Source of the DNA: Vescimonas sp.
Lineage (GTDB): Bacteria; Bacillota; Clostridia; Oscillospirales; Oscillospiraceae
Direction: 5' to 3'
DNA: 46,081 nucleotides
Assembly (NCBI GenBank): GCA_045543255.1
Contig: JAZQMH010000109.1
Coordinates: 1 to 46,081, forward strand
Shown in pieces: positions 6,324 to 11,555 of the stretch. The position numbers were made by a program, and so were the translations under genes. How positions within the stretch are numbered: the first letter of the stretch is position 1; each line of letters starts with the position of its first letter. The notes under the pieces were generated by a model. That model saw only the letters and a program-made list of their open reading frames with translations, ran no database searches and was not told the DNA's origin.

Positions 6324-7637
6324 TTATTTCTTCTTGGTGAAGATGATGAACAGGATGCTGCTCACTGCCAGCAGGAAGGGATAGAACAGCATGGGGATGA
6401 TCTCGAAAGCGGAGATGGTGTAGCCCAGGGTGGTGCAGGCGGAGATTGCCACCAGCATCTGTGCGCCGTAGGGGATGATGCCCTGGAAGATGCAGGAGAA
6501 GGTGTCCAGCAGGGAGGCGGCGCGCTTAGGCTCGATGCCGTATTCCTCGCTGATTTCCTTGGCGATGGGACCTGCCATAACGATGGCCACGGTGTTGTTG
6601 GCGGTGGCGATGTCCATGACACCCACCAGCAGACCAACGCCCAGCTGACCGCCGCGATTGCCCTTGAAGCAGCGGCGAATGAACTGCAGGAGAGACTCAA
6701 AGCCGCCGTAGGCGCGGATGAGGCCGCACAGAGCGGAGACAAGGATGGTGACCATGACGGTCTCAAACATACCGCTGACGCCGCTGCCCATGTTGCCCAG
6801 CAGCTCGATGGCGGTGACCTGACCGGTGAGGAGGGTAATGAGCGCGCCGGAGACGATGCCAATGAGCAGCACCACGAACACATTCAGACCCACGATGCCG
6901 CCGATGAGCACCAGCACATAGGGGATCAGCAGCACCAGATTGTGGTCGCCGTTGGGCACGGCGTTAACATCAGTGCCGATGGAGATCAGCAGGATGATGA
7001 CCAGTGCAGCCAGAGCGGCGGGGAGGGCGATCTTGAAGTTGGCGCGGAACTTATCTTTCATCTCGCAGCCTTGGGTAGAGCAGGCGGCGATGGTAGTATC
7101 GGAAATGAAGGAGAGGTTGTCGCCGAACATGGCGCCGCCCACCACGGAGGCAACGCACAGGGGCAGGGAGAAGCCGGAATCGGCAGCCACGGCAACAGCG
7201 ATGGGCGCAATGAGGGTGATGGTGCCCACGGAAGTACCCATAGCCATAGAGATGAAGCAGGCCACTACGAACAGCACGGCCACAGCCAGCTTGGCGGGAG
7301 CAATGTTCAGCAGGAAGTAGGCGGCAGCCTCAGCACTGGAGCGACCGGTGACGCCTACAAAGATACCGGCGGCCATGAAAATAAGGATCATGGTCATGAT
7401 GTTGGGGTCGCCCACGCCCTTTGCCATCAGCACCAGCTTATCGTTAAAGCTGACGGCGCGGTTCTGCAGGCAGGCCACCAGTACGGCAACGAGAAATGCC
7501 ACCACGATGGGGATATTGTAAAAGCCCATGGGGATGCGGAGTGCATACTCGAAAATAAGGCCGAGGCCGAGATACAGGATCAAAAAGACCATAATGGGGA
7601 TCAAGGCTACGGCCTTAGGGGTAGGTTTGTGTTCCAT
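6324..7637 (-). CDS. Na+/H+ antiporter NhaC family transporter, probably sulfur amino acid (MetT-like) uptake
   Basis: Multi-TM protein with MGTSVGT, GGAMFGDNLSFISDTTIAA, ANNTVAI, IPYGAQ motifs; last gene of the cysK-cysE unit. Substrate is inference. Confidence 0.8.
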   Translation of the reverse strand: MEHKPTPKAVALIPIMVFLILYLGLGLIFEYALRIPMGFYNIPIVVAFLVAVLVACLQNRAVSFNDKLVLMAKGVGDPNIMTMILIFMAAGIFVGVTGRSSAEAAAYFLLNIAPAKLAVAVLFVVACFISMAMGTSVGTITLIAPIAVAVAADSGFSLPLCVASVVGGAMFGDNLSFISDTTIAACSTQGCEMKDKFRANFKIALPAALAALVIILLISIGTDVNAVPNGDHNLVLLIPYVLVLIGGIVGLNVFVVLLIGIVSGALITLLTGQVTAIELLGNMGSGVSGMFETVMVTILVSALCGLIRAYGGFESLLQFIRRCFKGNRGGQLGVGLLVGVMDIATANNTVAIVMAGPIAKEISEEYGIEPKRAASLLDTFSCIFQGIIPYGAQMLVAISACTTLGYTISAFEIIPMLFYPFLLAVSSILFIIFTKKK

Positions 7638-7672: not shown

Positions 7673-8533
7673 TTACTTGCTGCGCACCTTAATCTCGGGG
7701 GGCTGGATCACCACGCGGGTGTCGGCCTCCACAGAGGAGGTGAGGAAGGCGTTGGAGCCCACTACGGCACGCTCGCCGATGACGGTCTCGCCGCCGAAGA
7801 TGGAAGCGCCGGAGTAGACGGTCGCGCCGTCGTTGACAGTGGGGTGGCGCTTGCCGTGGGCATTGATACGACCGCCACGGGGGCTCAGTGCGCCTAAGGT
7901 GACGCCCTGATAGATCTTCACGTGCTCACCGATGTTGGTGGTCTCGCCGATGACAATGCCGGTGCCGTGGTCGATGAAGAAGTAGCTGCCGATCTCTGCG
8001 CCGGGGTGGATGTCGATACCGGTGCGGCTGTGGGCGTACTCCGTCATCATGCGGGGGATCATGGGGACAGCCTCAAGGTAGAGAAGGTGTGCCACGCGAT
8101 AGGCGAAGATGGCGAAGAGGCCGGGATAGGCGAAGGCCACTTCCTCCCGGTTCTGTGCGGCGGGGTCGCCGTCAAAGATGGCGTCAATGTCGGTGAGGAG
8201 CTGACGCTGTACCTGGGGCAGCTGCTCCACCACGCGGCGGGCGATCTCGTTGGCGCGATGGGTCTCAGCACCGGGGAGAGCCAGAGAGAGGTGCTTGGTG
8301 AGATTGGTCTCAATGCGCTCAAGAAGAAGAGCGGCGTAGTCTTTGGCCTCCAGGGTCATCAAGGCGCTGTCGCCAAAGTAGGCGGGGAACATCAGCTGGC
8401 GCATCTCCTTGAGAAGGGCGATGATGGCCTTACGGTCGGGCAGGCGCAGGCGGCTGCCGTACATGGGGAGAGAGGCCTCGGCCATGTTCTCTGCCATGGC
8501 GCGGGCGGCTTTGCAAATATGATCAGCGTACAT
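7673..8533 (-). CDS. cysE: Serine O-acetyltransferase
   Basis: GDPAA, YPGLFA, TGIDIHPGA, FFIDHGTGIVIGET, YQGVTLGA, KRHPT motifs. Confidence 0.93.
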   Translation of the reverse strand: MYADHICKAARAMAENMAEASLPMYGSRLRLPDRKAIIALLKEMRQLMFPAYFGDSALMTLEAKDYAALLLERIETNLTKHLSLALPGAETHRANEIARRVVEQLPQVQRQLLTDIDAIFDGDPAAQNREEVAFAYPGLFAIFAYRVAHLLYLEAVPMIPRMMTEYAHSRTGIDIHPGAEIGSYFFIDHGTGIVIGETTNIGEHVKIYQGVTLGALSPRGGRINAHGKRHPTVNDGATVYSGASIFGGETVIGERAVVGSNAFLTSSVEADTRVVIQPPEIKVRSK

Positions 8534-8537
8534 TTAC

Positions 8538-9470
8538 TTAGTCCTCCTTCCACAAATCTGTGGACAAATAGCGTCCGCCGTCGTCCGGCAGGAGCGCGAC
8601 AATGGTTTTTCCGTGATTTTCGGGGCGCTGTGCCAGCATATCGGCGGCGCGAAGAGCAGCACCGGAGGTGATGCCCGTCAGCACGCCCTCGGTGCGGGCA
8701 AGGAGACGTGCGGCGTTATAGGCCTCCGTCTCGGTGATGGGGATGATCTCATCCACCAAAGAGGCATCGTAGTTCTTGGGCACGAAGTTGGCGCCGATGC
8801 CCTGCAGACCGTGGGGGCCTGCCTTACCGCCGGAGAGAAGGGGGGAGGCAGCGGGCTCAACAGCCACGATGCGGACGTTGGGGTTCTTCTCCTTGAGATA
8901 GCGTGCCACGCCGCTGATGGTGCCGCCTGTGCCTACGCCTGCTACGAAGATATCCACCAAGCCGTCGCTGTCGCGCCAGATCTCGGGGCCCGTGGTCTTA
9001 TAGTGGGCAGCGGGGTTGGCGGGATTTTCAAACTGGCCTGCAATAAAGCTGTTGGGGATGGAGCGGTGCAGCTCCTCGGCCTTTTCGATGGCGGCGCTCA
9101 TGCCTCCCTCGGCGTCCGTCAGCACCAGTTCCGCGCCGTAGGCACGCAGCAGCGTCTTGCGCTCTTCGCTCATGCTTGCGGGCATGGTGAGAATCACGCG
9201 GTAGCCGCGGGAGACGGCCATGGCGGCGAGGCCGATGCCCGTATTGCCGGAGGTGGGCTCGATGATAGTGCCGCCTTGCTGCAGTGCGCCGCTCTCCTCC
9301 GCCTGCTGCAGCATTTCCAAAGCCACACGGTCTTTTGCGCTGCCTGCGATGTTACAACACTCCAGCTTGGCGAGAATGGTGGCGTTGAGCTTGCGGTATG
9401 CGCCATAGCGCTCCAACTGCAGCAGCGGTGTGTTGCCTACGAGGGCGTCGATGGAATGATAGATCTCCAT
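8538..9470 (-). CDS. cysK: Cysteine synthase A (O-acetylserine sulfhydrylase)
   Basis: VGNTPL, GSAKDR (PLP lysine), EPTSGNTGIG, GVGTGGT, GPHGLQGIG, RYLST motifs; RBS GAAAGGA. Confidence 0.95.
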   Translation of the reverse strand: MEIYHSIDALVGNTPLLQLERYGAYRKLNATILAKLECCNIAGSAKDRVALEMLQQAEESGALQQGGTIIEPTSGNTGIGLAAMAVSRGYRVILTMPASMSEERKTLLRAYGAELVLTDAEGGMSAAIEKAEELHRSIPNSFIAGQFENPANPAAHYKTTGPEIWRDSDGLVDIFVAGVGTGGTISGVARYLKEKNPNVRIVAVEPAASPLLSGGKAGPHGLQGIGANFVPKNYDASLVDEIIPITETEAYNAARLLARTEGVLTGITSGAALRAADMLAQRPENHGKTIVALLPDDGGRYLSTDLWKED

Positions 9471-9491
9471 AGGTGTGACTTCCTTTCAGAT

Positions 9492-9534
9492 AAAATAAAA
9501 AAGAGAGGGCGTGCAGATGCACACGTCCTCTCTT
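9492..9534 (-). terminator. Intrinsic (attenuator) terminator in cysK leader
   Basis: Minus strand AAGAGAGGACGTGTG-CATC-TGCACGCCCTCTCTT followed by TTTTATTTT, just upstream of the cysK RBS. Confidence 0.85.
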
Positions 9535-9563
9535 GAAAACAATAGGTGGTTTTCTTACCGCGT

Positions 9564-9665
9564 TTATGCGGTGTGAGAAGCCGTGTGACGGTCGAAACAA
9601 GCGCAACAAACCATGCCCATGCAGCACATGGACTGACACTTCATCATAGCGTTGCGCACCATCAT
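9564..9665 (-). CDS. Putative Met/Cys-rich attenuator leader peptide (33 aa)
   Basis: MMVRNAMMKCQSMCCMGMVCCACFDRHTASHTA*; RBS AAGGAG 9 nt upstream; 13 of the first 23 codons are Met or Cys; followed by antiterminator/terminator and cysK. Confidence 0.82.
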   Translation of the reverse strand: MMVRNAMMKCQSMCCMGMVCCACFDRHTASHTA

Positions 9666-9695
9666 CTTTGGCTTCTCCTTTCTTGTGATAGTACT

Positions 9696-9724
9696 ATTAT
9701 ACGGCAGGGCAGGGGAAAATGCTA
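9696..9724 (-). promoter_or_regulatory. Putative sigma-A promoter for leader-cysK-cysE-transporter
   Basis: Perfect -10 TATAAT (9701-9696); weak -35 TAGCAT 17 bp upstream. Confidence 0.6.
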
Positions 9725-9797
9725 TGGGGATGGTACACAAACTTCTCCTGCCTTTTCCTGTTCCTTTTAGCGGAAAAGGGACAAAATTCACCAAGAC

Positions 9798-10517
9798 TCA
9801 CCCCACCAGCACATCAATTGCCAGCATGAAGCAGAAGCCTAAAAGCAGCGCTGCCGTGCCACGGCGGTGGCTCTGCGCCTCGGGAATCATATCCTGACAG
9901 ATGACATAGAGCATAGTACCCCCTGCGAAGGAGAGGACGAAGGGCAGCGCGGCGGTGGAGAGGCTCACAGCCCCGAAGCCTAAAAACGTGCCGATGATCT
10001 CGGGGATGCCCGTCGCCATAGATAGGAGCAACGCTCGCTGCGGCGGCAACCCCGAGCGCAGGAGGGGTGCAATGAGCACCATGCCCTCGGGGACATTCTG
10101 GGCGGCGATTCCTGCGGCGATGGCGAGAGCTTGGGGGATGCTGCCGCTGCCAAAGCCCACTCCTGCGGCAATGCCCTCGGGAAAGTTATGAATGGCGATG
10201 GCGGCGAGGAAGAGAAGCGCACCCCGCATTTCGTGTGGTGTCATGAGCTTGGCGGTGCAGCGGGAGAGCAGCAGTAAAAACGCGCCGCCGCAGAGGATGC
10301 CCGAGAGTACCAGCGGCAAACGCCACGCCCCGCCGCCTTCTAATGCGGGGATGATAAGCCCTGCCACGGCGGCGCTGAGCATCATCCCTGCGGCGAAGGA
10401 GAGGAGCAGGCCCTCTCCCAATCGCCGCGCTGCGCCGCGGAAGAGATACCCTGCCGCCGCCCCTGCCATGGTAGAGCCGCCCACGGTGAGAGCCGTCAGC
10501 AGTACGATGAGAAACAT
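9798..10517 (-). CDS. ZIP family metal transporter (ZupT-like)
   Basis: SFAAGMMLSA, IHNFPEG, QNVPEG, FAGGTMLYV, MIPE motifs. Start 10517 chosen for RBS and promoter-like TTGCAC-17-CATAGT overlapping the longer start. Confidence 0.88.
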   Translation of the reverse strand: MFLIVLLTALTVGGSTMAGAAAGYLFRGAARRLGEGLLLSFAAGMMLSAAVAGLIIPALEGGGAWRLPLVLSGILCGGAFLLLLSRCTAKLMTPHEMRGALLFLAAIAIHNFPEGIAAGVGFGSGSIPQALAIAAGIAAQNVPEGMVLIAPLLRSGLPPQRALLLSMATGIPEIIGTFLGFGAVSLSTAALPFVLSFAGGTMLYVICQDMIPEAQSHRRGTAALLLGFCFMLAIDVLVG

Positions 10518-10577
10518 AATGAACGCCCCTTTGCTTTTCACTATGCTCATACTATGGCGGAGTAGGGGGAGAGGTGC

Positions 10578-10625: not shown

Positions 10626-11555
10626 TTACTTTTCGTGAATGATGAGCTCCGTCACATCGGGGCGGGAGTAGTGGCCGCAGGGGTCAAACTCCATGCGGGC
10701 GCGGGCGGCCTCATCGGGGTCGATGTCGGCGTAAATGATGGTCTCGCAGTCCCACACAGGCTCGGTGACATAGTGACCGTAGGGGTCGATGATGGCGCTG
10801 CCGCCGTTGCAGGGTGCTTGGGGCAGGCGGGCGATTTCATCGGCGGCAGGGCCGTGGTAGTCAGTGGGGTACATGTCCTTTGTGAAGTACTGGTTCACAT
10901 GGAACACGAAGCACTTGCCCTCAATGGCGATGTGCTTGATGGTGTCGTGCCACTCGGGATTATTGTTGGTGTTGGGGCAGAGGTAGAGGGAAACGCCCTT
11001 TTGATACAGTGCCACGCGGGCGAGGGGCATATAGTTCTCCCAGCAGATCAGCGCACCCATAGTGCCCCAAGGGGAGTCCACCGTGGGGAAATAGTCGCGG
11101 TCGGCATCGCCCCACACAATGCGCTCGGCACCCGTGGGCTTTAATTTGCGGTGGTTGCACAAAAGTTTTCCGTCGGGCCCGAAAATCATGTTGGAGCAGT
11201 AGAGCGTGCCGTTATTTGCGCCCCGCTCAGTGTAGCCGATGGAGACATAAGCACCCGCCTCACGGGCGGCAGCGCCGATGCGGTCGGTGTCGGCGCTGGG
11301 GCAGAGGACGGCGTTATCATAGTAGATCTTCCAGTCGTCGCGGCAGCTCTCGGTGCGGCTGCCCACGGTGAAACCGTAGGTGAGACCGTAGGGATAGCAA
11401 GGGATGAGGGACTCGGGGAACACGATCAGTTCAGCACCGTTCTTGCCCGCCTCGCGGATCTGATCGCAGACCTTATCAATGGTGGCGTCCTTGTTGAACA
11501 TGACGGGGGTGGCCTGTACCAGTGCCACGCGGAGCTTGTGGGATAGATCTTTCAT
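10626..11555 (-). CDS. Nitrilase (carbon-nitrogen hydrolase, branch 1-like)
   Basis: Catalytic triad motifs VFPES, HRKLKPTGAER, LICWENYMPL; C-terminal DPCGHYSRPDV. Confidence 0.9.
   Translation of the reverse strand: MKDLSHKLRVALVQATPVMFNKDATIDKVCDQIREAGKNGAELIVFPESLIPCYPYGLTYGFTVGSRTESCRDDWKIYYDNAVLCPSADTDRIGAAAREAGAYVSIGYTERGANNGTLYCSNMIFGPDGKLLCNHRKLKPTGAERIVWGDADRDYFPTVDSPWGTMGALICWENYMPLARVALYQKGVSLYLCPNTNNNPEWHDTIKHIAIEGKCFVFHVNQYFTKDMYPTDYHGPAADEIARLPQAPCNGGSAIIDPYGHYVTEPVWDCETIIYADIDPDEAARARMEFDPCGHYSRPDVTELIIHEK

Follow-up and report, generated by a model that had tools for sequence, protein, structure and literature searches.

How is the cysK-cysE-nhaC operon of this Vescimonas sp. 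genome controlled, and if a ribosome reads a short Cys- and Met-rich leader ORF ahead of cysK, which of the two amino acids is sensed? Sulfur amino acid genes of Firmicutes are held to use T-boxes, SAM riboswitches, and repressors, and leader peptides have been called rare there (PMC1262725 and PMC2965389, in the parts available). For the 46,081-nucleotide stretch of DNA analyzed here (the window), an initial annotation had listed a TATAAT box, an AAGGAG ribosome-binding site (RBS), a 33-codon ORF with 7 Met and 6 Cys codons, an intrinsic terminator, and a cysK RBS, and all of these lie on the minus strand where it had placed them (Table 1). We conclude that the region is very probably a ribosome-dependent transcription attenuator that is off by default and at which ribosomes stall at Cys and probably Met codons.

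Table 1. Features of the leader region and the neighboring genes in the window.
Feature	Position	Strand	Remark
Weak -35-like hexamer TAGCAT	9719..9724	-	TAGACA, TGGACA, or TAGCAA in relatives
-10 box TATAAT	9696..9701	-	position kept in relatives
Leader RBS AAGGAG	9680-9675	-	9 nt before ATG 9665
Segment 1 GGAGAAGCC	9678-9670 (with RBS, 9670..9680)	-	5' strand of predicted anti-antiterminator
Leader ORF, 33 codons, MMVRNAMMKCQSMCCMGMVCCACFDRHTASHTA	9665-9564	-	7 Met (6 after start) and 6 Cys, all in codons 1-23
Small hairpin over S-M-C-C-M-G codons	9615..9633	-	only part of the leader family has one
Segment 2 CACACGGCTTCTC, codons 27-31	9575..9587	-	partner is segment 1 or segment 3
Two small hairpins bridging the antiterminator	9535..9572	-	9572-9557 over the stop codon; 9554-9535
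TTGTTT	9542-9537	-	matches NusG pause motif TTNTTT; just before segment 3
Segment 3 GAGAGGACGTGTG	9520..9532	-	5' arm of terminator and 3' strand of antiterminator
Intrinsic terminator	9492..9534	-	by folding; stem 9534-9501, U-tract to 9492
cysK RBS	9486-9481	-	outside terminator stem; cysK ATG 9470
cysK, cysteine synthase A	8538..9470	-	TIGR01139, 417 bits (cutoff 351)
cysE-like serine O-acetyltransferase	7673..8533	-	TIGR01172, 167 bits (below 211); NF041874 EpsC, 152 bits (above 150)
NhaC-family transporter	6324..7637	-	PF03553; predicted methionine (MetT-like) uptake
ZupT-family zinc transporter gene	9798-10550	-	upstream of leader
Nitrilase gene	10626-11555	-	upstream of leader

The leader ORF contains 12 Cys or Met codons after the start, compared to a maximum of 8 when the 330-nt region was dinucleotide-shuffled 5,000 times, and the binomial probability of the cluster, given the codon frequencies of the genome's long ORFs, is 2.5e-9. 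Among the 2,319 RBS-led short ORFs of the host genome it ranks second for Cys plus Met, the metQ leader being first. The terminator hairpin has a predicted energy of -20.1 kcal/mol (z = -6.3), and none of 200 shuffles was equally good. A -10-like hexamer is found 5' of each of the 52 cysK leaders identified, mostly 34 to 39 nt from the start, and a consensus promoter scanner called no promoter within 9000-10500 because the -35 hexamer is weak. In relatives, a TTTGTG...CA/TA element recurs 5' of the weak -35, approximately 25 to 50 nt upstream of the leader -10, and is possibly an activator site. Between zupT and the leader promoter no U-tract terminator was scored, so read-in transcription is possible. 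In assembled RNA contigs from four of 22 runs, which cannot rank the parts of a transcript, one contig of run X3 spans 9468-9678 at a depth of 30.5, compared to 5 to 7 for its neighbors, and a single contig of run X2 covers both the leader and cysK. The host genome is 78% complete, and the nearest named cysK (96%) belongs to an uncultured Oscillospiraceae genome.

Neither a T-box nor a SAM riboswitch had been expected by the initial annotation, and the Rfam searches agreed: the whole window gave no match at gathering level, and an E-value search of 9380-9850 gave only four chance matches (E of 3 to 8). The leader region had no match to stem I or the antiterminator of the T-box riboswitch (RF00230) and no aptamer match to SAM riboswitches (RF00162 and the other Rfam 15 families). 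The host genome has 10 T-box matches, all elsewhere, some of them before cysS- and metG-like genes (named from their N-termini), and each of five complete genus genomes carries one SAM-I. No MetA/HTS match was found in any of these five, so the genus may not make methionine by that route (MetX was outside the search).

We surveyed 90 cysK loci: 30 from a first set and 60 more picked out of 110 matches, which took in every member of the closer clade and some of the second clade. An RBS-led Cys/Met leader with a terminator precedes 52 of the 55 cysK-cysE loci (the window counted, and one accepted through a wider RBS rule), which bears out the expectation that both elements would be conserved in relatives. 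The three exceptions are L189, where an insertion moved the leader upstream, L215, at a contig end, and L022, which belongs to another family. The insertion at L189 (G083:C2), which lies between the terminator and cysK, is MITE-like, about 300 bp long, and has inverted ends; the leader was recovered there by the sequence model. Without an adjoining cysE, a leader was present at 1 of 35 cysK loci (L015). In named genomes, 8 of 80 cysK loci, plus one doubtful case, have a leader, and these are from Oscillospiraceae, Lachnospiraceae, Lacrimispora, and Solobacterium. At metQ, 22 of 23 loci have one. A sequence-only model built on the cysK leaders matched in 91 of 98 genus genomes; across the order, sequence model R1 gave only two partial matches in 120 other genomes, so the leaders of other families are either unrelated or too diverged for R1.

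Several other arrangements were encountered in the survey. The second cysK clade has a different short upstream ORF (uORF) with (F/G)-R-C (CGA-TGT) at its end or inside it, mostly without a terminator (L015, L020, L023, L024, L025, L027, L029, L226-L229, and L232); it often follows a repressor-site-like CCTACC-N-GGTAG palindrome beside the promoter, and at L015 it is placed after the Cys-rich leader. At L125, L126, and L214, an extra short ORF with an RBS, whose first residues are M-C-L or M-V-Y, lies between the terminator and the first gene. A scan upstream of 30 metY/Cys-Met-lyase loci turned up a single leader, which lies on the opposite strand and leads into a metN-I-Q-lyase operon. In another family, a 38-codon Met/Cys leader (5 Cys, 6 Met) was seen at L145/L275 (G033:C1, about position 902670, plus strand), divergent from metY and before an operon of metN-I-Q and a Cys/Met lyase gene.

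The initial annotation had recognized the layout of an attenuator and had left out an antiterminator. Such a helix was found, formed by codons 27-31 and the 5' arm of the terminator, and it covaries; so does a further helix beyond those annotated, an anti-antiterminator that hides the leader RBS and start codon. In all, three mutually exclusive predicted helices, 1:2, 2:3, and 3:4, overlap the leader ORF, with base-pair covariation in each. The alignment comprised 41 of the 52 cysK leaders; of the 11 excluded, 8 were short or divergent and 3 were near-duplicates. The permutation controls applied to it keep the column makeup and do not correct for the relatedness of the leaders. In the terminator, two-sided changes occur at 6 of 9 consensus pairs. 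Antiterminator 2:3, anchored on the conserved His codon, is paired in 92% of cells, compared to 32 to 65% in 18 slid registers, with none of 2,000 permutations equally high, and 4 of its 13 pairs show two-sided changes; the value of 92% was obtained after five window-clade rows had been shifted by one codon onto the His column, and without the shift it is 87%, again with 0 of 2,000 permutations as high. For helix 1:2, 78% of cells show pairing of segment 2 with the three noncoding bases that precede the ATG, a level reached in 0 of 2,000 permutations (mean, 64%). The five window-clade rows use the RBS side for this pairing; once they are omitted, the value is 88% (permuted, 71%). In most relatives, the partner of the leader's own ATG is the His codon CAT. 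At the level of single loci, a codon-shuffle test of the best 2:3 duplex gave P values of ≤0.05 in only 13 of 52 cysK and 1 of 22 metQ leaders. Segment 2 begins 5 to 11 codons before the stop in all 41 leaders, and 395 of the 409 control codons are on its 5' side. A NusG pause motif is not general in the family: TTNTTT is present in only 10 of the 41 linkers (shuffle mean, 4.5; 3 of 1,000 shuffles as high).

Folding of the window leader with a ribosome footprint suggests how these helices could respond to stalling. The antiterminator form of 9590-9517 has a predicted energy of -27.9 kcal/mol (z = -5.0). With RNA up to segment 3, the antiterminator probability was 0.03 without a ribosome and 0.07 with one at the stop codon, 0.75 to 0.99 with one at codons 2-8 and 20-24, and 0.4 to 0.8 at codons 9-12 and 18-19. 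A single footprint at codons 13-17 (M-C-C-M) gave 0.02 to 0.03, because helix 1:2 re-forms; blocking all RNA upstream of the stalled ribosome, as a queue of ribosomes would, gave 0.99 at every codon from 2 to 23. Across leaders with upstream RNA blocked, 289 of 409 control codons exceeded 0.5. With the full-length RNA at equilibrium, the terminator formed at every ribosome position tried, so we infer from these foldings that the switch would have to be kinetic.

We propose that, when no ribosome is present, the RBS and start region of the leader would hold segment 2 in helix 1:2, which would also hide the leader's own RBS and start codon, and that terminator 3:4 would then form and keep the operon off. 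A ribosome that has run through would cover segment 2 at the stop codon, and the terminator would again form. One stalled at the control codons, short of charged tRNA-Cys or, probably, elongator tRNA-Met, would disrupt helix 1:2; the freed segment 2 would pair with segment 3 while segment 4 had yet to be transcribed, the terminator would come too late, and cysK-cysE-nhaC would be transcribed. The antiterminator state would be a kinetic trap, stalls at codons 13-17 would be effective only if the upstream RNA were also blocked, and the leader peptide itself would have no function. Methionine starvation may also stop initiation on the leader and so lock the switch off, and sensing of methionine would for this reason need an initiator tRNA that stays charged longer; in E. 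coli, the initiator tRNA does stay charged longer than the elongator tRNA. Among predicted gene-end terminators, 124 of 274 lie within 12 nt of the stop codon; short spacing of this kind is used as a stand-in measure of runaway transcription in the available part of PMC7858274, and since the terminator caller was crude and had no control genome, the count is only a hint of it.

The mix of codons bears on which amino acid is read. Across the 50 cysK leaders that were classified, 294 Cys triplets fall in frame versus 121 and 95 in the other frames, and the counts for Met triplets are 183 versus 22 and 10; Cys codon use over all 74 leaders is TGT 211 and TGC 177. An unbiased scan of the host genome returned a second leader, L121 (G000:C213:3624-3517, minus strand), with 10 Met and 4 Cys codons after the start and a terminator, which precedes a metQNI-like operon (NlpA lipoprotein/ABC/permease); next on that contig come a T-box and a cysS-like gene. 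Forty of 179 model matches were examined, 23 of them before cysE alone, 12 before metQ, 2 before cysK, and 3 at a contig edge. The median Met fraction was 0.10 for leaders before cysE alone (n = 23; median codons, 7 Cys and 1 Met), 0.33 for cysK-cysE (n = 31; 6 Cys and 3 Met), 0.50 for cysK-cysE-nhaC (n = 19; 5 Cys and 5 Met), and 0.69 for metQ (n = 34; 4 Cys and 9 Met), with two peptides hand-trimmed to a later start; these medians exclude the 2 cysK rows, the 3 rows at a contig edge, and two loci whose nhaC state was unknown. The cysE and metQ extremes are distinct, but they amount essentially to one comparison of two orthologous groups. The metQ leaders, with 6 to 11 Met codons, indicate that this leader family can be built on Met; their in-frame Cys triplets number 80 versus 119 in frame +1, an absence of excess that gives no support for cysteine sensing in metQ leaders. 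We suggest that the Met:Cys codon ratio would set the input of each copy: cysteine for cysE and cysK, methionine for metQNI, and both at the operon studied here.

Cysteine sensing alone might nevertheless account for the cysK leaders, whose Met codons would then be passengers, kept as arms of ATG/CAT hairpins or arising from TG-rich repeats. We regard this as rather unlikely. Cys is the constant signal, and the Met count at cysK and cysE leaders runs from 0 to 10 codons: for those before cysE alone the median is 1 (range, 0 to 3), and two cysK leaders have none, as a cysteine-only attenuator would allow. Internal Met codons do form the arms of the S-M-C-C-M-G hairpin in many cysK-only leaders, but four of the six in the window leader lie outside that hairpin. 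The increase in Met with nhaC, seen in two to three independent pairs on supported branches and in five on all branches, with none reversed, is not significant; counter-cases are L012 (7 Met, no nhaC) and L010, L203, L209, and L210 (nhaC present, 2 to 3 Met). The blocked initiation described above, which could lock a default-off operon off under methionine starvation, would also favor a switch that reads cysteine only. Against it are the strong in-frame bias of the Met triplets and the Met-rich leaders of metQ, which are homologous. Dual sensing of cysteine and methionine is thus likely at the cysK-cysE-nhaC locus, and we think it reasonably probable that methionine by itself matters there. 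The dual sensing that the initial annotation had inferred therefore stands as likely for this locus and does not extend to the whole leader family, since Met content varies so widely.

The third gene of the operon encodes an NhaC-family protein; MetT is an NhaC-type methionine transporter. SAM-I lies directly upstream of 5 of 18 class-wide NhaC homologue loci (41 to 46% identity), which supports only indirectly the predicted MetT-like role in methionine uptake that the initial annotation had suggested. The prediction that stand-alone nhaC orthologues would carry a Met-rich leader of their own failed, with a leader at only 3 of 17; one of the three has 6 Cys and 3 Met codons, and that of L269 came from a sequence-model match. 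A cysK-type leader directly before cysE or nhaC, suggesting erosion of the operon, was seen at L279, L280, L281, L283, and L284 and likewise at L269, L273, and L274, with a short remnant of the cysK start retained at L273.

TnaC and SpeFL exemplify sequence- or ligand-dependent arrest of the ribosome by a nascent peptide. Arrest of this type, for example by free cysteine, sulfide, or a metal, could replace codon hunger as the trigger, and a near-constant H-x-x-S motif 1 to 10 codons past the last control codon might be read as its signature. This motif, however, is segment 2, changes in it are matched in segment 3 and in the start region, and its codons are nearly invariant synonymously (CAT 34 and CAC 5; TCT 32 and TCC 7 of 41), so it is accounted for by RNA pairing; the order and number of Cys and Met also vary freely among leaders, and we consider peptide arrest very improbable. 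Equally hard to sustain is a functional Cys-rich small protein (a metal binder or RiPP precursor) with its own terminator, or a leader whose ORF is incidental and whose RNA is an unknown riboswitch or binds a protein, for although the peptide has six Cys residues, is listed by gene callers (in a cluster of 4 with no name), and has a ZupT-family zinc transporter gene just upstream, it matched no protein family, only 4 of the 13 loci checked have zupT upstream, Cys/Met composition tracks the downstream amino acid genes, and a consensus fold of the leaders gave no conserved 5' aptamer-like structure, nor did Rfam a match.

With ribosome-dependent attenuation as the preferred reading, one gut Clostridia genus appears to split its control among T-boxes at synthetases, SAM-I, and leaders read by ribosomes at the genes for cysteine synthesis and methionine uptake. 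If this is true, the leaders are a naturally occurring set of variants in which to test how the specificity of an attenuator depends on its codon mix, whether elongator Met codons can report starvation even though initiation needs Met, and how attenuation proceeds where polymerase may outrun the ribosome. More tentatively, with expectations that fall a little short of even, the leaders may form an undescribed genus-wide regulon of homologous attenuators that acts as a two-input dial, in which codon changes move the setting from Cys alone to mostly Met as genes join or leave the operon. Were that so, it would be the first working Met-plus-Cys transcription attenuator, in a lineage with a hint of uncoupled transcription, and the substrates of orphan transporters, this NhaC among them, would be predictable from the codon mix.

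The class of mechanism itself is textbook, and dual specificity is a property of the thrL and ilv leaders. The window leader has the components of a classical attenuator, namely, an RBS-led uORF, conserved in-frame control codons, a terminator, and a mutually exclusive antiterminator (by covariation and the footprint model, weaker per locus and failing at codons 13-17 with one ribosome). Like E. coli trpL, hisL, thrL, and ilv, whose leader-peptide attenuation is outlined in the available part of 10.1101/834739, it combines a short uORF of cognate codons with a four-segment switch, a terminator, and an untranslated state that is off by default; it differs from them in its Cys/Met specificity, its Clostridia host, a helix 1:2 that hides its own start codon or RBS, and a codon ratio that tracks operon content. 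Nor is attenuation by uORFs new to Firmicutes. In B. subtilis vmlR, as far as the available text of PMC9226507 describes it, the uORF likewise lies within an anti-antiterminator, termination is the default, and a NusG pause buys the ribosome time; vmlR senses antibiotics, and TTNTTT is found in only 10 of 41 leaders here; the His leaders of bacilli respond to another amino acid (PMC2965389, available part).

Neither Met nor Cys specificity is new by itself, since leaders of both kinds have been published from Campylobacter, Streptomyces, Rhodobacterales, and mycobacteria; the statements that follow refer to the available parts of each source. Campylobacter jejuni MetL, before metBA, is a Met-codon leader with a short RNA ending behind its stop (PMC3847290) and Ribo-seq initiation peaks, and a second Met-rich sORF, MMYQMR, precedes a Met-binding protein gene in Campylobacter (PMC11955535); MetL, unlike the present leader, has 3 Met and no reported Cys cluster, is confined to three Campylobacter species, and has putative regulation (PMC3847290). 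Streptomyces lividans metL, before the Met ABC importer genes metNIQ, encodes a peptide with a mixed Cys/Met end but is leaderless, had no intrinsic terminator found, and was read by its authors as Met/Thr-rich (PMC8079986). The uORFC-8-2 before cysS in Rhodobacterales couples Cys codons to a predicted intrinsic terminator and differs in having two Cys codons, no Met cluster, a tRNA synthetase target, and an alphaproteobacterial host (PMC8632094). In mycobacteria, experiments showed that the ribosome reads charged tRNA-Cys at polycysteine sORFs before cysteine genes, and these sORFs are leaderless, act on translation, lack a terminator, and carry the Cys run at the 3' end (10.1101/834739; PMC1262725), whereas the present leader is RBS-led and has a terminator with the cysK RBS outside its stem. 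The available parts of PMC5171806 and PMC13323073 held nothing relevant to Met/Cys leaders. The initial annotation knew of no such attenuator in Clostridia, and the literature search, in which subscription journals were mostly outside the scope and the supplements of PMC2965389, PMC8632094, and PMC3847290 could list one, likewise found none there; its suggestion of novelty is narrowed by the Met and mixed Met/Cys leaders published outside Clostridia (PMC3847290 and PMC8079986). This locus contributes the codon gradient from cysE to metQ, together with the covarying helix 1:2 that hides the leader's start codon.
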